40,000 nt of DNA. It comes from Enterobacter sp. TMH.L2 (GTDB taxonomy: Bacteria > Pseudomonadota > Gammaproteobacteria > Enterobacterales > Enterobacteriaceae). Positions 5,874 to 21,981 of this stretch are shown in pieces. The position numbers and the translations under genes are program-made. The notes below the pieces were generated by a model that had not been told where the DNA came from, did not search any database, and saw nothing but the letters and a program-made list of their open reading frames with translations. The stretch is from assembly GCA_050847315.1 (NCBI GenBank), contig CP193791.1; one strand, written 5' to 3'. The first letter of the stretch is position 1, and every line of letters starts with the position of its first letter.

Positions 5874-5957
5874 CGTGGCAGGCCACCCCGCCGGGAGGAC
5901 CCATGAATAATATTGATTATCATTACCATCAATCAAAGGCCGCCTGTGGTACCGCGC

Positions 5958-5988
5958 ATAAAAAAGCCACCAGCGGATGCCAGTGGCT
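5958..5988 (-). terminator. Rho-independent terminator (minus strand)
   Basis: The minus strand reads AGCCAC-12 nt loop-GTGGCT followed by TTTTTTAT. Lies directly downstream of the tRNA-like fragment. Confidence 0.5.
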
Positions 5989-5995
5989 AAGGGTA

Positions 5996-6027
5996 TGGTA
6001 ATCAGGGTGGGATTCGAACCCACACTC
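5996..6027 (-). pseudogene. tRNA 3' fragment (T-arm, acceptor 3' strand and CCA); no matching 5' half
   Basis: The minus strand reads GAGTGTGGGTTCGAATCCCACCCTGATTACCA: a GTGGG-TTCGAAT-CCCAC T-arm, then CCTGATT-A-CCA. The upstream 45 nt cannot form the acceptor 5' strand (AATCAGG is absent) or a normal anticodon arm. Confidence 0.45.
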
Positions 6028-6075
6028 TTGCAGTATTGGCCACGCGCACCACTGCTCGATGTAGCTTATGTATAG

Positions 6076-6456
6076 CTAGATAGATAAGACTCTTAACTTT
6101 AATTTAAACTGTTGTTCAGGATTTAAAACATCTGTAAGACGGAGAGTTTGCCCTTTTTTTAATGGAAGATCTGGGTAAAAGATGTCTCCGTCCTCATCAA
6201 TTAAGGATTGAGTAGACCTCTCTCCATGTAAATAATATTTTAGAACCTCACCTACATATAGCTTGATTTCATTCCCGCCAGGCTCTCCTGATAAGCTATA
6301 AGTATCGTTGTATCCAGTTTCCCTTTGAATTAATGTTGCTGCGCCACCAGAAAAATCGCCAAGATATTTAACCGTGACTTTATACTCAACCCCTAAGCAA
6401 AGCGTCAAACATTCACCATCTTTTTCTTCTGACATTGCTGCATAATTTTTACTCAA
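6076..6456 (-). CDS. Hypothetical protein, AT-rich moron between Rz/Rz1 and cos (126 aa, TTG start)
   Basis: The ORF begins with TTG, 6 nt after a strong AAGGAG. Visibly lower GC than its neighbours. No family recognised. Confidence 0.6.
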   Translation of the reverse strand: MSKNYAAMSEEKDGECLTLCLGVEYKVTVKYLGDFSGGAATLIQRETGYNDTYSLSGEPGGNEIKLYVGEVLKYYLHGERSTQSLIDEDGDIFYPDLPLKKGQTLRLTDVLNPEQQFKLKLRVLSI

Positions 6457-6551
6457 CGATGACTCCTTTTGATCTATATACGATGGCAGGAAAAGAGTAT
6501 TGAGGATATTGTTTAATGTTTCAATGACAGGATCATAAATTCGAAACGTAT

Positions 6552-7019
6552 TTAGTTACCACACTGCTTCTTAACATAGTCTTGTAGCCCTGCTATTTGC
6601 TTGTTGCTGGTTTCGATTCGCTCCCTGAGACGGAAATAATCCCGCTCAGCGGCGTCAGTAAGTCCGGGGCCGGTAGCATCATCCACGCCGGGGGCGCTGG
6701 TGGCGGCGCGCACTGGCTGGCAGGTAGCGTTGAGGCGCAGCCGCTTATCACCAGCAGCAACATCACGCTGCAGCTGCTCAATAGTTTGTTTGGCATCGGC
6801 CAGTTCCTGAGTATATTTCGAGTCCAGAGCAGCAACATCATGCTGGCGGGTCTGCATGTCGTTGATCGTTTGCTGGCGCTGCTGTGCCAACAGTTCCGCA
6901 TCATCCGCGCGCTTTTGCTCTGTCATATACTTGCGGTGATAATGATTAGCGGACCAGATAAGGGCACCAGCCAGGCTAACGACAAGCACGAAAAGAAGTA
7001 ATCGGTATCCAACTGTCAT
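6552..7019 (-). CDS. i-spanin (Rz-like)
   Basis: 155 aa with an N-terminal TM (LLLFVLVVSLAGALIW) followed by charged coiled-coil sequence. ATGA overlap with the endolysin stop. Contains an embedded +1-frame lipoprotein ORF. Confidence 0.85.
   Translation of the reverse strand: MTVGYRLLLFVLVVSLAGALIWSANHYHRKYMTEQKRADDAELLAQQRQQTINDMQTRQHDVAALDSKYTQELADAKQTIEQLQRDVAAGDKRLRLNATCQPVRAATSAPGVDDATGPGLTDAAERDYFRLRERIETSNKQIAGLQDYVKKQCGN
6593..6796 (-). CDS. o-spanin (Rz1-like lipoprotein) embedded in the Rz frame
   Basis: MPNKLLSSCSVMLLLVISGC has a lipobox (ISGC) and is followed by a proline-rich mature part (CAPPPAPPAW...). Entirely inside the Rz gene in another frame. An alternative start is the ATG at 6763. 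Confidence 0.75.
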   Translation of the reverse strand: MPNKLLSSCSVMLLLVISGCASTLPASQCAPPPAPPAWMMLPAPDLLTPLSGIISVSGSESKPATSK

Positions 7020-7531
7020 AAGCCATCCAAACAGAGCTGCTTCTCTGCACCACGGCGAGTGACCAAGCCAGTAAGCTTAACGCCGCCTCCGTACACCCAT
7101 CTCGAGAACTGCTCGCATGCCTGGGCTTCTTGCCCGCTGCGCAGCTGCTTAAACAGTGTCGATTTCTGCATTGCTCCACAACCAACGTTAAACGTGATCG
7201 AAGTGACCGCAGAAAACGTGTTGTCTGAAAGCTTTTTCCCGTTACCGTAGCTGTTCACGCAGCGCTCAGCGCTCATGATGTTCTTTTCCCAGTCTGCGGC
7301 TATCTGCTGGTCAGTCTTTCGCGTTCCGGGCTTCACGTCGTGTGTGTTGCCAATGCCGTCAGTAATCACGCCAGCTGGACAGACATAAGGATCACGGCGG
7401 CAGGATTCGGCGTTGCCGATTAACTCCAGACCGCGCTCATTCGTTCGCACATGGCCAGCACTTAAAATAATGGCGATGATTGCCCCAACTGAGCAGACCG
7501 CGCCGGCAGCCCCAACCTTTTTATTTTGCAT
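7016..7531 (-). CDS. SAR endolysin (T4-lysozyme-like, GH24)
   Basis: N-terminal weakly hydrophobic Gly/Ala-rich signal-anchor (GAAGAVCSVGAIIAIILSAG). AESCRRDPYVCPAGVITDGIGNT fits the E-8aa-(D/C)-5aa-T catalytic triad. Confidence 0.9.
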   Translation of the reverse strand: MQNKKVGAAGAVCSVGAIIAIILSAGHVRTNERGLELIGNAESCRRDPYVCPAGVITDGIGNTHDVKPGTRKTDQQIAADWEKNIMSAERCVNSYGNGKKLSDNTFSAVTSITFNVGCGAMQKSTLFKQLRSGQEAQACEQFSRWVYGGGVKLTGLVTRRGAEKQLCLDGL

Positions 7532-7829
7532 TGGCGCTTATCCTGTTAATTGCCTCAGTCACAACTTGAACGCTAGATGGGCGCTGTTCCGGTGGCAACT
7601 GGTGCGCATCTTCAAAATATTTTTCCAGTAGCTTTGTGCGCTTCTGCTCTTCACGTCGCAATCGCCATGCATCAAGGCGGCCGAAAATAAATGAGACCAG
7701 AGAGACCAGGACGCCTATTAATCCAAAAAGCATATAAACCACATCCTGAGTCGTGAAGCCTATCGCCGACGCAAACGCCGCTATCCAGGCAAAAAGCTGT
7801 GTAACAACATTGGACGTCTGATCATTCAT
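7521..7829 (-). CDS. Holin with two TM domains; possibly a pinholin, given the SAR endolysin
   Basis: 102 aa. Two hydrophobic helices (VVTQLFAWIAAFASAIGF, VVYMLFGLIGVLVSLVSFIF) and a charged C-terminus. First gene of the lysis cassette, overlapping the endolysin start. Confidence 0.8.
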   Translation of the reverse strand: MNDQTSNVVTQLFAWIAAFASAIGFTTQDVVYMLFGLIGVLVSLVSFIFGRLDAWRLRREEQKRTKLLEKYFEDAHQLPPEQRPSSVQVVTEAINRISANAK

Positions 7830-7870
7830 TTCAATGGTCTCTCACCTCGCTTCCTACGAGTGTTATGTGT

Positions 7871-7900
7871 TAAATAAAAATGCCACCCTAAAGGATGGCA
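7871..7900 (-). terminator. Rho-independent terminator ~40 nt upstream of the holin (tR'-like position)
   Basis: The minus strand reads TGCCATCC-TTTA-GGGTGGCA (8-bp stem including one G-U pair) followed by TTTTTATTTA. Confidence 0.6.
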
Positions 7901-8132
7901 CTTTGAATATGCATTCTCATTATTCATTCTGCACTGCATCAAAGTTTTTTAATTAACTTTGCAAAGTTCCTATTCCAAGATAAAAACCACCAGATTTAGT
8001 AGTGTTTTTATCTTTAAGCTTTGTGACAAAGTAACTATTCTTAGCAGATTACGATAACTTTTGCGTACGCGTTAGCTTTTTGTAATCTTAAAATACACAG
8101 CATGAAAATCCTAAAATGAATAAGAAGAGAAA

Positions 8133-9416
8133 ATGACAGCAGAGATCGCAGTATTCAACAAGACAGCCGTAGCACTTGCCGCAGATTCAGCTGTAACAGT
8201 TTCTGGTGGCGGAAAGCATAAGATCTATAACGGTGCAGAAAAGCTTTTTGCCCTGACAAAGCATCATCCAGTAGGACTTATGGTCTACGGTGCTGGTGAT
8301 TTATGCACAGCACCATGGGAGTTAGTAATCAAAGCTTACCGAAGCCAACTCGGAGCCAAATCCTTTGATAACCTAGAACAATATGCACATGACTTTTTTC
8401 ACTATTTGCAGAACTCGGATGAAATCATAACTGCAGGTATGCGAGATGCTCATCTTTATCATTTTTTAAGCGAAAGTGTCTTTAACTCCCTATTTGATGC
8501 TTTCACAGAAGGGCTCGACAATACTTATTGGCTAGAATTCAATCAAGATAAGCTTTATCAAGACTTTACAGCTTATTGTTTACAATTAAAGAATAAATTA
8601 TCTGAAATTAGCTACTGTGATAACTTTGATGAAACTGATGAAAAAGCTGCTTTAGATTATACAAAACCTTTAGCTAAAAGGATCGTAGGGGAGAAGTTTA
8701 ATGATGTACAATCAACTGACTTACCAGAGAACCTGCTGAAGGTTGTGAGTGAAGTTCTCGCAGCAATGATATGTAAGCAAAGTGATATAGGTTCAATGTC
8801 AGGTATCGTAATTGCTGGATATGGCGAGAAGGACTATTACCCGAAAATTCTCTCATATGAAGTTTTTGGATTTTTTAACCAAAAAATCAGAAAAACTACC
8901 AATAAAGACAAATGTTGCATAAGCCCCGACTGTGGAGTGACCCCCTTTGCTCAGGAGGATGAGGTGGCTGCATTCATGCAAGGAGCAAGTTCTCATCTCA
9001 TTCAAAATCTTCATGGTGAGTATCAGAACTCCATAGTCAACCTGCTCGAGGGTGTTGACAAATTAGTCACAGAAATGGTAGACACTTCTAACATTGAAAA
9101 GGCTAGGGAAGGTATACTCACGATAGTTAGGGGCACTGTTGCGGAATGTAAAGCAAACATAGATAGCTTCGTCCGTGAAAATTACGTCGATAAGGTAGTA
9201 AACATGATTGAGTTTCTGCCGAAACAAGACTTGGCTTATATGGCTGAGTCTCTGGTCAATCTCACTGCCTTCAAACGGAAAGTATCAGATGATACTGAGA
9301 GTGTCGGCGGGCCAATCGATGTCGCAGTGATCTCAAAGGCAGATGGTTTCATTTGGGTAAAACGGAAACATTACTTTAACAAAGATTTAAACCATCATTT
9401 TTTTGAACGGTCATAA
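8133..9416 (+). CDS. Proteasome-beta-like / Ntn-hydrolase-fold protein with large helical insertions (427 aa)
   Basis: N-terminus MTAEIAVFNKTAVALAADSAVTV...GLMVYGAGD: Thr directly after the initiator Met and Asp at mature position 17. Central SGIVIAGYGEKDYYPKILSYEVFG resembles the proteasome IAGyDe..gP.LY.vdp.G segment. C-terminal GGPIDVAVISKADGFIWV. AT-rich and oriented opposite to the surrounding late genes. The CDS is secure; the fold assignment is by eye only. Confidence 0.6.
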   Translation: MTAEIAVFNKTAVALAADSAVTVSGGGKHKIYNGAEKLFALTKHHPVGLMVYGAGDLCTAPWELVIKAYRSQLGAKSFDNLEQYAHDFFHYLQNSDEIITAGMRDAHLYHFLSESVFNSLFDAFTEGLDNTYWLEFNQDKLYQDFTAYCLQLKNKLSEISYCDNFDETDEKAALDYTKPLAKRIVGEKFNDVQSTDLPENLLKVVSEVLAAMICKQSDIGSMSGIVIAGYGEKDYYPKILSYEVFGFFNQKIRKTTNKDKCCISPDCGVTPFAQEDEVAAFMQGASSHLIQNLHGEYQNSIVNLLEGVDKLVTEMVDTSNIEKAREGILTIVRGTVAECKANIDSFVRENYVDKVVNMIEFLPKQDLAYMAESLVNLTAFKRKVSDDTESVGGPIDVAVISKADGFIWVKRKHYFNKDLNHHFFERS

Positions 9417-9439
9417 AAAATAGCCATTAAGGAGAAAAC

Positions 9440-9583
9440 ATGTCACTTAAGCAAGCTTATGAAAACTCTCAGCAAAAAAGCATCCATGACTTCTTTCATG
9501 TAAGTAAGTCATCAAAAATAAGACGTAATGCATCTAACAATGAAAATTTTTTCATGAAACTAATCAAACCATCTAATACATAA
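9440..9583 (+). CDS. Small basic hydrophilic ORF (47 aa) downstream of the Ntn-like gene
   Basis: ATG 5 nt after AAGGAG, 23 nt after the upstream stop. MSLKQAYENSQQKSIHDFFHVSKSSKIRRNASNNENFFMKLIKPSNT. Followed by a terminator. Below the ORF-track size cutoff. Confidence 0.45.
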   Translation: MSLKQAYENSQQKSIHDFFHVSKSSKIRRNASNNENFFMKLIKPSNT

Positions 9584-9589
9584 CACCGT

Positions 9590-9617
9590 AAAAAGGGCCC
9601 GTAAAGTGGCCCTTTTT
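9590..9617. terminator. Bidirectional rho-independent terminator between the plus-strand cassette and Q
   Basis: AAAAAGGGCC-8 nt loop-GGCCCTTTTT, with A/T runs on both sides. Lies 6 nt after the Q stop on the minus strand and 6 nt after the small ORF stop on the plus strand. Confidence 0.7.
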
Positions 9618-9623
9618 GACGTT

Positions 9624-9974
9624 TTAAGAACAAGTTACAACTGCCATTACCCCTTCTAAAAACCCCAAAGCATTTAGCATTTCTTTCCTTATAGTACCAT
9701 CCGAACATTTACGTTTTTTCGCAATAGCCCTTAGAGAGACGCAAAACAAAAAATGGGCAATTATCAGTTCAAAGTACTCTTGGTGGTGTTTTTTTAACCT
9801 AACCACGCAGCTATCAATCATCATTCCTTCATCATCGCTACACATGATCCGGGCTTTTTTTCCATGAGACAGTAACCCCTTAAAACCAGCCGCAATAGGT
9901 TGCCAGTCAACGCCACTATTGTTGGAAGCAGCCCATGCTCCCCACATGTCCAAGGCCTCATACATATCACGCAT
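9624..9974 (-). CDS. Late-gene antiterminator Q-like protein
   Basis: 116 aa, the last gene of the nin-like region before the lysis genes. The C-terminal ...SLRAIAKKRKCSDGTIRKEMLNALGFLEG resembles the HTH-like end of the phage antitermination Q family. Confidence 0.7.
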   Translation of the reverse strand: MRDMYEALDMWGAWAASNNSGVDWQPIAAGFKGLLSHGKKARIMCSDDEGMMIDSCVVRLKKHHQEYFELIIAHFLFCVSLRAIAKKRKCSDGTIRKEMLNALGFLEGVMAVVTCS

Positions 9975-9987
9975 AGTGTTCTCCTAA

Positions 9988-11022
9988 TTAAGCCAGCACA
10001 CCAAGCGCAAAGGCTCGGTCCAAAGTGTTTTTGAGCATGACCAACTGAGAACCGTTCTTACGCTCGAATTCCCTTTGGTCTCGGTGAAGTTCGTCATGGC
10101 ATTTCCGACACAGGGGAATAGCAAAGCTGTCATGCGATTTTGTGCCCATCCCTCCCTGTCCATACCCGATCAGGTGGTGGGGATCATCCGCTGAAGAACC
10201 ACAGCCCTCGCACGGTTGTGATTTAACCCATTTCAGATAGTCAGGTTTTTCCCAACGAATTCGTTTTGGTCGCGAAAAAAACGTTTGAGGTGATTCGGGA
10301 TCTGCCACCAGCGCAACAACGGGCTTTTCTCTGACTTGTTCCTGCTGTTGTTGACTCCGGAAATATGCAGCTCTTTTCACCAGTTCGCTGGTGGCCGGAA
10401 CAGATGGCTCGATTTCACTTTCACGATAAACCGAGAGAATGGGTTCTGGTTTGAAGTTGAGTGCGCGCCGGGCCATTGCCTCTCCTATCGCTTCGGAAAC
10501 ACCCATATAAACGGCCCACCAGCAGAGCTCTGCCAGTGAAAGCTCTCTATCGCTATTGAATCCGAGTTTTGAAAGGACTGTTTCGATTACCCAGGCTTTT
10601 ACATTCTGCAGCGCGATGGCTTCCAGCTGCTCTGTGCTCTGTTCCCGTAATTTGTTATCGCATGACCAGCAAAGGTGCATAGCGCCAGGGCTATGCCGCA
10701 TCATTACCTTTTCTTTATGGTGATAATCCGTGTGTGGCCACTGACAATGAGGGATGCGGCGAAATAGCCAGGACTCGAGCGACGTGATACCGCCGGCAGC
10801 CTGAATGACTCGCTCATCTGCGAAAAACGTATCAAGAGATTTATCTTCGCCTAAGGGCTGCCGCGCATCCGGTATCTTTCCAGAGGGAAGATTTGCCATT
10901 GCTTTTGACGGTATTTCTACAAGGACCCTGCCATACCCAAAAAGCTGCATCAGGTCCCGGCCCGGCTTGAGCAAGACCACACCCAGATTATGTGCAATCT
11001 CTACGGTCAGAATAGCGCGCAT
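9988..11022 (-). CDS. DUF968 (YdfU-like) prophage protein
   Basis: C-terminal CEGCGSSADDPHHLIGYGQGGMGTKSHDSFAIPLCRKCHDELH is the Cys/His-rich signature seen in DUF968 proteins of lambdoid nin regions. Confidence 0.75.
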   Translation of the reverse strand: MRAILTVEIAHNLGVVLLKPGRDLMQLFGYGRVLVEIPSKAMANLPSGKIPDARQPLGEDKSLDTFFADERVIQAAGGITSLESWLFRRIPHCQWPHTDYHHKEKVMMRHSPGAMHLCWSCDNKLREQSTEQLEAIALQNVKAWVIETVLSKLGFNSDRELSLAELCWWAVYMGVSEAIGEAMARRALNFKPEPILSVYRESEIEPSVPATSELVKRAAYFRSQQQQEQVREKPVVALVADPESPQTFFSRPKRIRWEKPDYLKWVKSQPCEGCGSSADDPHHLIGYGQGGMGTKSHDSFAIPLCRKCHDELHRDQREFERKNGSQLVMLKNTLDRAFALGVLA

Positions 11023-11378: not shown

Positions 11379-11581
11379 CACTGCCTCCAGCACGGCTGTT
11401 GGTAGGTGCGGTCGATTCGCGGCGGCGTTTTACCTTCAGGAAGTAGCGCGCTGACAATCCAGTTGGTGTAATCCGGAGCAAGGCTCTTTTCCGTAACGAC
11501 GCCATTGGCCTTATATCGTGTCACCAACTCTTCAGCTTGTTCTGCTGTTAGGTTGTCATGTTGGAACCAGCCCTTTTTCAT
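11378..11581 (-). CDS. Hypothetical nin-region protein (67 aa)
   Basis: ORF tightly coupled to its neighbours by overlaps at both ends. No family recognised. Confidence 0.5.
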   Translation of the reverse strand: MKKGWFQHDNLTAEQAEELVTRYKANGVVTEKSLAPDYTNWIVSALLPEGKTPPRIDRTYQQPCWRQ

Positions 11582-11985
11582 AGCTGCGCTCCGTGAAGTT
11601 CCAGGAACGCGATAGCCCTCTCCCTTGCGCCGGGATAGCCATCAACCATTTCCTGCAGCAACTGCACCGCCAGGATCGGCTCCTTGGAACCGACAATCGA
11701 TATGCCGCGGGAAACGCCTCGGGTGATAGCTATAACGCCTTTGCGCTCGAGGGCTTTGAGATGCTCTGCCGCAGCATTTGGTGAATTTACGCCGAGTAAC
11801 TCAGCAAGCTCCGTTGTTGAAGGCGGATAGCCTTTTTGCTGCAAGAATGAAACCAGAAGGTCGAATACTTCTTGCTGGCGAGGCGTCAGAGAATGGTTTT
11901 TTACCGGACGTGTCAAAGTCCCGGCTGAGCCACTGCGGCTATCGGGTTTGTGTGTTTCAGATTTTTTTGAGGTGTTTTGCGCCAT
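11578..11985 (-). CDS. LexA N-terminal DNA-binding-domain protein lacking the S24 peptidase/cleavage domain (135 aa)
   Basis: [63 protein letters not shown] tracks E. coli LexA residues ~4-70 ([63 protein letters not shown], from memory). There is no AG cleavage site or Ser/Lys domain. GGAGA RBS 6 nt upstream. Confidence 0.8.
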   Translation of the reverse strand: [135 protein letters not shown]

Positions 11986-12318: not shown

Positions 12319-12408
12319 CCCCCGCCATGCGAGTGGCTATGAAGCACGTCTTTCAGGGTATAACGGAGGATGATTTCTTTGCTCAAAATACCTCCCCACC
12401 TTAAAACA

Positions 12409-12455
12409 CTGTATGAATGTACAGTTATTATTAACCTGTTTATTTTGGATTGCAA
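12409..12455 (-). promoter_or_regulatory. LexA (SOS) box CTGTATGAATGTACAG (12409-12424) with a minus-strand promoter: -35 TTGCAA 12450-12455, -10 TAATAA 12428-12433
   Basis: Perfect CTGT-N8-ACAG with an AT-rich centre; the 20-mer is CACTGTATGAATGTACAGTT. On the minus strand TTGCAA-16 nt-TAATAA lies immediately upstream, so the box covers the predicted start site. Confidence 0.7.
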
Positions 12456-13127
12456 TGAAAAAGGCTCAACAGTACGTTTATGTGGTATTTATCGTTTTTT
12501 CAGTAGGTTAAGTTTTGTTCATGCTATTCAGGCGGTCTGCTGCCCATCAGTATAAAGCTCTGGTAAACTAGCTCTAACCAAAGCTTCGACGAACGGTGGC
12601 GGTGTCGAATTCCAACAGCGCTCATTGGCATACTCAAATCGATGATGAACGGTTACGGGAGCTATATCCAATGCTCACCGCAATACACAATGATGTTGTT
12701 CTTGCTCTTACTATTCGTATCTAGCCCTATCGAGTCAAACACAGATAGATATCGGCCTGCCTTACATAATGCCCACAAGGTTTGCTTTGAGCGAGAACCG
12801 GGCATCGACTTAGCGTGATTGAAGGGAATCTCAAAAGTTTCTGGCATTGTTTACTGGAATACTTACACAGAGTTGCAACTGCCTACATAAAGTGGAAATC
12901 TCCGACTGTATTCGATTCGCCCTGCCAGGGGCATACGCACAAGACGAGATTGTACCGAATTTACAGCTCGGTGATTCAATAAGAAGGTTGAAAGAGACCA
13001 TAGATAAAACATAGAATCAAACTTTAGAGTAGAACTATCCTCATACTTGTTATAGACGACATTAATTACCTGAAGATATAATTAGCATTGAGAATCTAAA
13101 AAAATCATTTCACTTGAGAGAAATACA

Positions 13128-13916
13128 ATGGACGAAAAAATACAGCTCCCCACAGCAGAAGTTTTTTATATGAACCATCCATTATACGAAGAAATATCGT
13201 ACTCAGAAGAAAACGTCGCTGAGCTAGAAAAAATGCTTTTAATTATCCAAATGAACGACGTGCATTGCCCTGATTGTCAAGCCTCCAGCCTTTTCAAAAT
13301 TAATAATAGTTTGTCCAAATCCTTTTACCAAGGATGGCATAAAGAAAACAATAGCTATTGCAAAATGGTTTATAATTGCCTAAGAAATTATGAACACTCA
13401 CTAACTTTCTTTTTCCGAATTGACAACTTTAAAGTCCAAAAAGTTGGTCAATATCCTTCAATGGCTGACCTAAATACATATGATGTAAAAAAATACGCTA
13501 CAGTCTTAGATAAACAACAATATAGTGATTTACGTAAAGCCATAGGATTAGCATCACATGGTATAGGAATTGGCTCATTTGTATATATAAGAAGAATTTT
13601 TGAGGATCTTGTAGAAAGAGCAAGGGTGCATGCTGAAAAGCAAGGAGTAATGAATAATGAAGAATATAAATCTTGTCGGATGGCTGATAAAATAAAAATG
13701 TTAGAGAAATTCCTTCCCCCATTTCTTGTTGAACATCGAAAAATTTACGGAATCCTTAGTAAAGGAGTGCATGAATTGACTGAGGAAGAATGTCTAAAAT
13801 CATTTGATATAGTTAAGGTAGGGATTGAAATAATTCTTGATGAACATCTTGAGGAAAAAGCAAGGAAAGCGAAGATAGATGCTGCATCTAAAGCCATAAA
13901 TAACCTTCAGCATTAG
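13128..13916 (+). CDS. Zn-ribbon plus DUF4145-like (HEPN-related) helical-domain protein (262 aa); candidate exclusion/Abi gene
   Basis: Very AT-rich single gene flanked by long non-coding AT-rich DNA. HCPDC...YCKMVYNC (CxxC...Cx5C), then QYPSMADL and helical ...GIGSFVYIRRIFEDLVE...IYGILSKGVHELTEEE, reminiscent of DUF4145 architecture. The canonical R..N..H motif is not intact. Confidence 0.4.
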   Translation: MDEKIQLPTAEVFYMNHPLYEEISYSEENVAELEKMLLIIQMNDVHCPDCQASSLFKINNSLSKSFYQGWHKENNSYCKMVYNCLRNYEHSLTFFFRIDNFKVQKVGQYPSMADLNTYDVKKYATVLDKQQYSDLRKAIGLASHGIGIGSFVYIRRIFEDLVERARVHAEKQGVMNNEEYKSCRMADKIKMLEKFLPPFLVEHRKIYGILSKGVHELTEEECLKSFDIVKVGIEIILDEHLEEKARKAKIDAASKAINNLQH

Positions 13917-17038: not shown

Positions 17039-17425
17039 ATGAAAACTATGTCCGAAATCATCGGCGAGAGACTCAAGACTCTTCGCGACAGCAAGAACTT
17101 AAGCCAAGCGCAACTTTCCAAGCTGTGCGGGTGGGCTACTGCTTCACGTGTCGGTAATTACGAACTGGGTGTGAGAAACATCGGGGTTGATGACGCGGTT
17201 ATTTTGGCAAGAGTGTTAGATACAACACCAAGCTACATCTTATTTGGCGATGAGGAGAATCGCGGGCAAGAGCTACCTGATAAGCAAAGGAAAATTCTAA
17301 AACTTTTCTCGCAACTGCCTGAGTCAGAACAAGATAAGATGATTGACCTCTTCGAGGTTCGTTTGAAAGAGATTGATGAGTACGTTGAAAAGTATCTAAA
17401 AGGCCGTTTTAAACCGGCTTCCTAA
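17039..17425 (+). CDS. CI-like prophage repressor (XRE HTH) without an S24 autocleavage domain (128 aa)
   Basis: LKTLRDSKNLSQAQLSKLCGWATASRVGNYELG HTH. Divergent from Cro. The short helical C-terminus has no Ala-Gly / Ser-Lys peptidase module. Confidence 0.8.
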   Translation: MKTMSEIIGERLKTLRDSKNLSQAQLSKLCGWATASRVGNYELGVRNIGVDDAVILARVLDTTPSYILFGDEENRGQELPDKQRKILKLFSQLPESEQDKMIDLFEVRLKEIDEYVEKYLKGRFKPAS

Positions 17426-20624: not shown

Positions 20625-20870
20625 ATGCTTCAAATGCTAACTCTCGAAGAATGGGCCGCAGAAAAATATCGGAGCAACCCTCCCGCGATGAATACACTGC
20701 GCCGCTACGCTAAACAAAATATGTTCTCTCCACCAGCGACAAAACAAGGGCGCCTGTGGCGCGTCAGGGAAGATGCAGAGATTGTTGGAGAATTGGCAAA
20801 ACCCGTAATTAGAAAGACGGACTCGCCCTTACTACAAAGGATTTTATCGGATGGCTGCCAGACCGCGTAA
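20625..20870 (+). CDS. xis: Excisionase, lambda Xis family
   Basis: MLTLEEWAAEKYRSNPPAMNTLRRYAKQNMFSPPATKQGRLWRVRED parallels lambda Xis MYLTLQEWNARQRRPRSLETVRRWVRECRIFPPPVKDGREYLFHE (from memory). Overlaps the int start by 20 nt. Confidence 0.85.
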   Translation: MLQMLTLEEWAAEKYRSNPPAMNTLRRYAKQNMFSPPATKQGRLWRVREDAEIVGELAKPVIRKTDSPLLQRILSDGCQTA

Positions 20871-21981
20871 AAATCAGGTAAAAGTGCCGAATCTTTATCC
20901 TCTCTACAGCCGTAAAGTGAATAAAGTCTACTGGCGGTATAAGCACCCTGTAACGGGTAAATTCCATGCGCTGGGCGATAACGAACAAGAGGCAATCGCA
21001 ATTGCCACCGAGGCAAACGCAAGAATTGCAGAACAAAGAACGCGGCAAATACTGGCGGTGAGTGACAGAATCGCCACCAGCAAAGGTAAAGCAATCACCG
21101 CCAATACCTGGCTCGATCGTTACTGTAGCATTCAGGATGAAAGGCTTAAGAGTGGAGATATAAGGCCGAATACCCATAAGCAAAAAGCCAAACCTATCGC
21201 GTTGCTTAGGGCACGTGTGGGTATGAAAACTATCTCAATGGTAGACGTAAGAGACATAGCTCAAATACTCGACGAGTATATTGCTGATGGCCAGGCACGT
21301 ATGGCTCAGGTCATACGCTCTGTTCTAATCGATGTATTCAAAGAAGCTCAGCACGCTGGGGAGGTTCCGCCAGGCTACAACCCCGCTCTCGCCACAAAGC
21401 AGCCGCGCCGGAGAATTACTCGTCAGCGATTAAACCTTGAAGAGTGGAAGAATATATTTGCAATCGCAGATGCAAATCACCGTTATTTGGGTAATGCAAT
21501 GTTATTGGCCATCGTCACTGGCCAGCGCCTTGGCGATATTTCCAAAATGAAATTTAGCGATATCTGGGATGATCACCTTCATGTGATCCAGGAAAAAACA
21601 GGCAGCAAGATTGCTATTCCTTTGTCTCTTCGATGTAACGCCATTGATTGGTGTCTGCGCGATGTGGTGGCCCGCTGCCGCGATTATGCGGTGAGCCCGT
21701 ACATGGTTCATTTTTTCCGGGCAACGTCCCAAGCTGAACGAGGTGCCCAGGTGAAATCCAATACGATCACAATGAACTTCAGCAAGGCTCGTGATAAAGC
21801 AGGAATAAATTGGGGAGATGGGACGCCAGCAACTTTTCATGAACAACGTTCTTTAGCAGAGCGTCTGTATGTAGCACAAGGGATCGACACTCAGAAACTA
21901 CTGGGACATAAGTCACCTAATCAGACAGCCCGATATCATGATGACCGTGGTAAGGAATGGAGTGTGATAAATAACGTATAA
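20851..21981 (+). CDS. int: Tyrosine integrase, lambda Int family
   Basis: 376 aa. N-terminal arm-binding-type region (PNLYPLYSRKVNKVYWRYKHPVTGKFHALG, compare lambda PPNLYIRNNGYYCYRDPRTGKEFGLG). C-terminal R...HxxR...Y context (TFHEQRSLAERLY...LLGHKSPNQTARYHDD). Confidence 0.92.
   Translation: MAARPRKNQVKVPNLYPLYSRKVNKVYWRYKHPVTGKFHALGDNEQEAIAIATEANARIAEQRTRQILAVSDRIATSKGKAITANTWLDRYCSIQDERLKSGDIRPNTHKQKAKPIALLRARVGMKTISMVDVRDIAQILDEYIADGQARMAQVIRSVLIDVFKEAQHAGEVPPGYNPALATKQPRRRITRQRLNLEEWKNIFAIADANHRYLGNAMLLAIVTGQRLGDISKMKFSDIWDDHLHVIQEKTGSKIAIPLSLRCNAIDWCLRDVVARCRDYAVSPYMVHFFRATSQAERGAQVKSNTITMNFSKARDKAGINWGDGTPATFHEQRSLAERLYVAQGIDTQKLLGHKSPNQTARYHDDRGKEWSVINNV

Follow-up and report, generated by a model that had tools for sequence, protein, structure and literature searches.

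A Two-Gene Cassette Pairing a Proteasome-Beta-Like Hydrolase with a Micro-Protein in a Prophage Cargo Hotspot, a Candidate Anti-Phage Module

Introduction

Why would a lambdoid prophage carry, between its antiterminator gene Q and its lysis genes, a protein that resembles a proteasome subunit, and what is the very small gene behind it for? The question is raised by a 40,000-nt stretch of contig CP193791.1 of Enterobacter sp. TMH.L2 (the window), in which an open reading frame (ORF) of 427 aa (8133–9416, plus strand), the gene of a proteasome-beta-like hydrolase, is followed by a basic ORF of 47 aa (9440–9583, plus strand). A first-pass annotation had proposed that the large product is an N-terminal nucleophile (Ntn) hydrolase, that the small ORF is its genuine partner, and that the pair sits in an accessory-gene slot with a probable role in the lysogen, such as defence. 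The first two proposals hold in the analysis described here, and the third is favoured by genomic context, as Kiwa and other defence genes occupy this slot, a cargo hotspot, in related phages. Because known anti-phage systems fill the slot in those phages, the cassette is probably an undescribed kind of phage defence, and we put the probability that it is a lysogen-expressed anti-phage module, as its context suggests, at roughly 0.55.

Fold and Active Site of the Large Protein

The 427-aa protein contains all of the peptides on which its initial assignment was based (MTAEIAV, ALAADSAVTV, GLMVYGAGD, IAGYGEKDYYPKILSYEVFG, and GGPIDVAVISKADGFIWV). It has no match in Pfam (the proteasome family included), NCBIfam, or PADLOC, and nothing significant was found among the PDB sequences, where the best profile match has an E-value of 1.2. 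A full-length match in PHROGs is to phrog_5990, a family of unknown function.

Structural comparison is more informative. The AlphaFold2 (AF2) model, built with 34 homologues, has a pLDDT of 83.5 and a pTM of 0.77, and each of its 50 best Foldseek matches in the PDB is a subunit of a 20S proteasome or of Anbu (best E = 2.1e-4, probability 0.92–1.0, TM about 0.5 when normalised to the target). Among viral models (BFVD), the best match carries the annotation proteasome beta subunit. The protein is thus predicted to adopt the four-layer alpha-beta-beta-alpha fold of proteasome beta subunits. With no Pfam hit and no significant match among PDB sequences, the relationship to proteasomes is seen only at the level of fold and motif; distant homologues described previously are likewise recognisable only at that level (PMC8665760).

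In the AF2 model, the core comprises residues 1–94, 223–283, and 364–413 and is interrupted by two helical insertions at about residues 101–214 and 287–360, close to where the first-pass annotation had placed them. Along the chain, helices H1 (62–73) and H2 (81–94) precede the inserted helices of residues 101–214, and H3 (275–283) is separated from H4 (364–385) by the inserted helices of residues 287–360; one insertion therefore follows the first helix pair and the other lies between the members of the second. Because of these two insertions, classical ring assembly of the protein is doubtful.

The residues expected of a threonine protease are near-invariant. Among 279 unique relatives, Thr2 is conserved in 99% and Asp18, Ser19, and Lys37 in 100%; Gly48 is present in 91% (Ala in 8%), and position 390 is Thr or Ser in 100%. 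In a set of 144 representatives that had not been selected on catalytic motifs, Thr stands directly after the start codon ([M/L/V]-T) in 141. A HMMER alignment, which is non-significant alone, places Asp18 and Lys37 opposite Glu17 and Lys33 of the Thermoplasma beta subunit and GGPIDVAIIS opposite GGMIDVAVIT. The equivalence of Gly48 to the Gly47 of the oxyanion hole and of Thr/Ser390 to the Ser169-type residue comes from a by-eye comparison with the same subunit. The ORF begins at the first start codon past an upstream stop, which leaves no room for an N-terminal extension. Methionine aminopeptidase removes an initiator methionine when the second residue is small. Since Thr follows the initiator Met and there is no upstream start, Met removal would expose the Thr nucleophile without a propeptide. 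Judged by these residues, the active site appears intact and of the proteasome type.

The only internal segment of low model confidence is a short loop between strands S2 and S3 (residues 22–34, pLDDT <50). The counterpart of this loop in proteasome subunits helps to line the substrate pocket; in the 427-aa protein the loop may become ordered only upon binding of a partner or substrate.

Relation to Known Proteasome Homologues

Homologues of the large protein form more than 7,000 clusters at 90% identity and 5,976 representatives at 50% identity, and nearly all are 420–450 aa long and align from residue 1. Their loci are spread over many bacterial phyla and methanogen and ANME archaea, and include 107 viral contigs as well as isolated phages and satellites. 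Twenty-two new proteasome homologues were described by Fuchs, Alva and Lupas in 2021 (PMC8665760), two of which, PMI-3 and PMI-4, have long insertions after H1/H2 and between H3/H4. PMI-3 is rare (28 sequences). PMI-4 is an abundant family that spans most bacterial phyla and Euryarchaeota, with records from phages as well (PMC8665760). By this published description, the architecture and distribution of the 427-aa family identify it as probably PMI-4; the PMI homologues and the 427-aa family share fold, catalytic residues, lack of a propeptide, two insertion sites, and wide spread. The first-pass annotation had regarded a phage-borne proteasome homologue as novel, a claim that cannot be kept: the fold assignment and the occurrence in phages were already known. 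The authors of PMC8665760 found no gene context or co-occurrence that hints at function, and it is here that the present analysis adds to the PMI homologues: the conserved small partner gene and the location in a cargo hotspot appear to be new. In our literature search, no later paper was found that ties the 427-aa family to phage defence.

With the 20S proteasome beta subunit, HslV, and Anbu (MEROPS T1), the 427-aa protein has in common the core sandwich, the N-terminal Thr, and the equivalent Asp and Lys, and with archaeal proteasome beta subunits also the strand motif GG-x-[IV]-D-V-A-[VI]-I. In contrast to these T1 proteins, it is about twice as large, owing to the two helical insertions, has no Pfam proteasome match, and is paired with a micro-protein and no AAA+ gene nearby; in a survey of 148 neighbouring genes for an unfoldase partner of the HslVU type, no recurrent AAA+ gene was found.

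The Small Partner Gene

The 47-aa product has 8 Lys/Arg and 3 Asp/Glu residues, and its ORF is a real gene under purifying selection. Sixteen variants at the DNA level are present among 36 related loci in the clade of the window; within close pairs all differences are synonymous (pN 0.00, pS 0.03–0.10), and more distant pairs have dN/dS ratios of 0.13–0.36 where these are calculable. In keeping with the partnership first proposed, 131 of 136 unique large genes (96%), drawn from bacteria, archaea, phages, and satellites, have a same-strand ORF of 30–100 aa directly behind them, compared with 38% of control genes (P = 3e-41). The start of the partner lies at, or a few bases from, the stop codon of the large gene and often overlaps it. 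By this measure, the micro-protein is an obligatory partner.

Profile evidence agrees with that from position and selection. Seeded with ten diverse examples, a partner profile has matches directly downstream of the large gene in 55 of 171 loci, whereas the 12,059 control ORFs taken from these loci gave no match. Profile-positive partners are found in Chloroflexota, Nitrospirota, Acidobacteriota, Planctomycetota, Bacillota, Actinomycetota, Proteobacteria, and methanogen/ANME archaea. They consist of a basic N-terminus, a core with the pattern [YF]-[RKH]-S-x-x-E-[FYW]-x-[KR]-x-[YF]-[FL]-P, and a C-terminal amphipathic helix with the pattern G-x-x-LA-x-E-x-L; the broad motif reads aromatic-x-K/R-x-Y/F-F/L-P, with a nearly invariant Pro. 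Gammaproteobacteria have shorter variants of the partner, termed types A, B, and C, and with these included a typed partner is present in 128 of the 171 loci. The ORF of the window is of type A (MSLKQAYE...DFF...NFFMKL) and is without the Pro of the motif (DFFHV).

The partner profile has no relative in Pfam or the PDB. The partner was found only as a stand-alone protein of 45–69 aa, and because of this fused domains give no clue to its role. It carries the annotation of a hypothetical coding sequence (CDS) in Streptococcus satellites and an isolated Providencia phage; gene callers often miss it. No conserved third gene accompanies the pair: the 148 neighbouring genes gave 171 Pfam families, none of them more than three times.

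The Cargo Hotspot between a Conserved Block and Q

On the left, the slot that holds the cassette begins with a 75-nt block upstream of the large gene (8012–8087, plus strand) that is conserved in related prophages. The hotspot was followed through loci L181–L299, for which the equivalent stretch of the window runs from 8012–8087 to 9624. The block contains an invariant TTTTGCGTACGCGTTA at 8059–8074. Across 101 unique loci, conservation extends from −47 to +28 around this motif, with two sharp edges and none outside, and the block is kept in related prophages whose lysis genes differ. It stands upstream of the module in 41 loci and occurs in at least 119 further viral loci, 91 of which are without the module and have a Q homologue on the opposite strand 0.6–3 kb away. 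The notion that the block is the regulatory region of the module itself was rejected on account of these 91 module-free loci and of its absence where the module sits elsewhere: it was not found in repressor-adjacent, satellite, Vibrio, or Alteromonas module loci.

Within the 16-mer, which is invariant in more than 100 loci, lies a perfect palindrome, GCGTACGC, at 8063–8070. The strict conservation of this segment suggests a protein-binding site, for a regulator or as a Q-related element, more than a promoter alone. On the strand of the cargo, the block also shows a plausible sigma-70 pattern (TTGCGT, 16–17 nt, TAnnnT), and the candidate cargo promoter of the window, a hexamer match only, has its −35 element at 8061–8066 (TTGCGT) and its −10 element at 8083–8088 (TAATCT) on the plus strand.

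The contents of the slot are highly variable. In 94 loci with a Q homologue on the opposite strand, 0.6–3.6 kb from the block, the interval between block and Q holds 32 alternative cargo architectures, mostly two- or three-gene operons, and 183 of the 188 cargo ORFs of at least 100 aa lie on the strand of the cassette, opposite to Q and the lysis genes. At the Q end, variability extends as far as the stop codon of Q, directly after which every cargo supplies a hairpin of its own; the only conserved non-coding element adjoins the lysis side of the cassette. Several cargos are recognisable as defence genes: full-length KwaB (2e-126) with a small gene upstream, that is, Kiwa, in 8 loci, PDC-S42 in 7, an NsnA/PD-T4-2-like gene in 5, and OLD-type ATPases in 3. 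AbiL-like, GmrSD, HEPN, RelA/SpoT, and cytosine methylase genes also occur, and toxin-type domains among the cargos comprise HEPN, RelA/SpoT, and AbiEii-like AAA_21. No prophage with near-identical flanks and another cargo, as expected of a recent swap, was found.

Other two-gene cargos are abundant in the slot, and several of the abundant cargos, like the module itself, resemble nothing known. They are exemplified by L272 3135–4130 with L277 6465–7025 (clusters c0 and c1, 13–14 loci), L231 762–2188 (c2 and c3, 11 loci), L261 1329–3739 (c8 and c9, 6 loci), L198 167–2549 (c14 and c15), and L278 3977–6084 (c17 and c18). Their first genes have no match to a PADLOC model, and their second genes were scanned in bulk only; these cargos are further candidates for undescribed defence systems.

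No account of this hotspot turned up in the searchable literature. P2 and P4-like elements have defence hotspots that were reportedly the subject of work by Rousset et al. in 2022. These too have a fixed position, conserved borders, and interchangeable small defence operons; what sets the present hotspot apart is its place in a lambdoid prophage group, with Q on one side and the lysis genes on the other.

The first-pass annotation had also called the cassette antisense to late transcription. This description is not established, as the late promoter was not located (a search for a Q-dependent promoter gave no convincing minus-strand promoter in the block and no conserved element after Q) and the module of a Providencia phage runs with the late genes.

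Other Genomic Contexts of the Module

The module is horizontally mobile. The commonest of its immediate neighbours on viral contigs, counted non-redundantly, are Q (19), helix-turn-helix (HTH) repressors (15), S24 peptidase-type repressors (8), and holins (8). The Serratia module stands behind the primase of an integrase-AlpA-primase element, in Alteromonas the module is the cargo of a small integrative element of the integrase-primase kind, in Vibrio it adjoins a type I restriction-modification system, and in Streptococcus it stands at the end of phage satellites. On plasmids it is rare (10 of 72,556 records). In Providencia phage PSTRCR_117lys (L300 3501–4975), the module is located between Q and the holin gene, after a Dam methylase gene, and points the same way as the late genes, unlike in the window and most cargos.

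The Klebsiella pneumoniae module comes immediately after the CI repressor gene and shares its strand; a terminator-like hairpin was called just behind the small ORF, and none in the interval between CI and the module. In phage lambda the position after the CI repressor gene is occupied by rexAB, which is co-transcribed with it. The Klebsiella module resembles rexAB as a two-gene accessory unit in the repressor position. There is, however, no relation of sequence or fold between the two, and the unit in the window sits in the slot between Q and the lysis genes, not beside the repressor.

That homologues would cluster in prophages or defence islands, as could be expected from the first-pass annotation, is true of one part of the family. 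In the gammaproteobacterial clade the module is located in defence hotspots or islands; in the family at large the association is weak and many neighbours are housekeeping genes.

Cassette Layout and the Surrounding Prophage

The two ORFs lie where they were first placed. They are separated by 23 nt, and the ribosome-binding site of the 47-aa ORF, AAGGAG (9429–9434, plus strand), ends 5 nt ahead of the second ATG. A minus-strand promoter-like site in the intergenic gap (9446–9417; GTGACA, 18 nt, TATTTT), which points into the large gene in antisense direction, could easily have arisen by chance. The annotated AT-rich character of the cassette is seen as a dip in GC content to 0.32–0.44 across 7850–9800, compared with about 0.50–0.55 in the flanks, and Pfam matches support the flanking genes. 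To the right, Q (9624–9974, minus strand; PF06530, E = 1.8e-40) forms the edge of the slot and a DUF968 gene (9988–11022, minus strand) lies beyond it; the minus-strand genes on this side also include RusA. To the left, the lysis genes form a block (6552–7829, minus strand) comprising a holin-like ORF (7521–7829, minus strand), assigned by position, size, and membrane-like sequence only, a lysozyme gene (7016–7531, minus strand; Pfam, E = 1.9e-33), and Rz (6552–7019, minus strand; Pfam, E = 4.2e-40).

Both of the terminators that had been proposed to bound the cassette fold well. The hairpin at 9587–9621, common to the cassette on the plus strand and Q on the minus strand, has folding energies of −18.2 and −18.6 kcal/mol on the two strands (z = −3.8 and −3.6) and T runs on both sides, making it a bidirectional terminator. 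The hairpin with a U tract at 7871–7900, just upstream of the holin-like gene, is strong on the minus strand (−16.4 kcal/mol, z = −5.3) and weak on the plus strand (z = −1.5). As a terminator it insulates the lysis genes, and it may also be the one that ends the late-promoter leader; related loci have a different minus-strand hairpin with a T run at the same relative position. A simple terminator pattern scanner called no terminators in the window, though both hairpins fold far better than shuffled sequence.

The window is otherwise a lambdoid prophage, with an integrase gene (20851–21981), a repressor-like HTH gene (17039–17425), and replication genes. The identical large protein is on record from Enterobacter sp. 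TMH.L2, and a DNA-level search of phage and E. coli collections with the cassette gave no match. Three further features of the prophage stand out. A 262-aa ORF without a Pfam match (13128–13916, plus strand), opposed to the adjoining early genes and beside a low-GC stretch (about 0.40, 12350–12650), may be a second accessory gene. Between the Rz and terminase genes, an AT-rich stretch (5900–6650, GC about 0.38) holds a 126-aa ORF without a Pfam match (6076–6456, minus strand), which may be another inserted gene. Upstream of RusA, a 135-aa protein (11578–11985, minus strand) has a LexA-type DNA-binding domain (PF01726, E = 2.2e-24) and no peptidase domain.

Discussion

We propose that the cassette is a self-contained, mobile two-gene module that would serve as accessory cargo of the prophage. 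Gene 1 would be made without a propeptide, so that loss of its Met exposes the Thr with its Asp and Lys partners in place, and gene 2, which would co-diverge with gene 1, would be translated from the same transcript. Expressed in the lysogen, the module is most likely an anti-phage system, working by abortive infection or in the manner of a toxin-antitoxin pair. In the uninfected cell, the small protein would hold the protease inactive or directed, as an active-site inhibitor or a dedicated substrate, and infection would release or trigger proteolysis of host or phage proteins. A bolder form of this proposal is tentative, and in our judgement falls short of an even chance: the protease and micro-protein may be a new and very widespread class of abortive infection in bacteria, archaea, temperate phages, and satellites, in which the micro-protein is an active-site-directed inhibitor or pro-peptide substrate recognised through its aromatic-x-K/R-x-Y/F-F/L-P motif.

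A number of observations count against a defensive function or against its details. Neither protein has a match in PADLOC-DB v2.0.0. Lysogen expression of the cassette from the conserved block is suggested by a hexamer match only. The orientation of the module with the late genes in Providencia phage PSTRCR_117lys would suit a function in the lytic phase, and across diverse phyla many neighbours are ordinary housekeeping genes and defence genes a minority; the 427-aa family need not serve defence throughout. The 47-aa ORF of the window is, by position, a probable but not proven homologue of the broad partner family, and the link in sequence is weak: profile-profile comparison (hhalign) gives P = 0.04 for the window type with the broad family, 0.007 for type B with the broad family, and 0.004 for type A with type C. 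That the small protein is an inhibitor or a dedicated substrate is itself a guess, as would be any other role.

The alternatives make different use of the same evidence. The pair could be a plain addiction module, in which a toxic protease and an unstable small neutraliser stabilise a prophage or island and have no phage-specific role. The tight linkage of the two genes, with the partner start often overlapping the stop codon, the presence of the pair on many kinds of mobile element, and the toxin-type domains held by the same slot are all consistent with this notion. The small protein, however, has no recognisable DNA-binding or antitoxin domain, the order with the large gene first is less usual in type II systems, and the module is rare on plasmids. 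We consider plain addiction unlikely, and it overlaps with the defensive explanation, as many toxin-antitoxin pairs in such slots also defend. A benefit to the phage during infection or induction, through processing or destruction of host proteins (counter-defence or takeover) or processing of phage proteins, would account for the location and late-gene orientation of the Providencia pair, and small phage-borne proteasome homologues, PPH and AAH, are known (PMC8665760). It is nevertheless quite improbable: the cassette of the window and nearly all slot cargo ORFs run against Q and the lysis genes, defence genes share the slot, and the module is common in satellites, phage-free chromosomal islands, and many non-phage contexts.

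Connectase, an archaeal enzyme that ligates proteins specifically, recognises a short Pro-containing motif in one substrate. A comparable pair, in which the F/L-P site of the small protein is cleaved or ligated for the needs of the cell, independently of phages, and the genes hitch-hike on mobile DNA, would explain the nearly invariant Pro after the aromatic-hydrophobic pair of the partner and the housekeeping neighbours in many phyla, and it draws on the recognition motif just mentioned. Connectase also has the proteasome fold, probably forms no ring, and carries extra helices, and its use of a dedicated short-motif substrate is a possible model for how the partner is used. Connectase, which is itself a proteasome homologue, lacks H1/H2 and has a two-helix insertion between S3 and S4 (PMC8665760), whereas the 427-aa protein has H1/H2 and its insertions are elsewhere. 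Connectase is confined to methanogens and the 427-aa family is not. The partner in the window is without the Pro, and a connectase-like role would not explain why, in Gammaproteobacteria, the pair is so strongly associated with hotspots of prophages and satellites; we find little to recommend a connectase-like role. Finally, the large protein could be a catalytically dead scaffold, a notion with which the missing Pfam proteasome match and the non-significant proteasome sequence similarity (E = 1.2) agree, or the small ORF could be a chance ORF. Both ideas are extremely improbable in view of catalytic residues that are 99–100% conserved across bacteria and archaea and of a small ORF that is conserved in position and under purifying selection.

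For the PMI family, the present analysis offers two testable handles, the obligatory micro-protein partner and the place among interchangeable defence cassettes. If the module protects against phage, it would represent a new protease chemistry in bacterial immunity, and a role would be assigned to a family of roughly 6,000 sequence clusters in bacteria and archaea. Should the pair prove to be a widespread abortive-infection class, threonine Ntn proteolysis would be a new effector chemistry in prokaryotic immunity.

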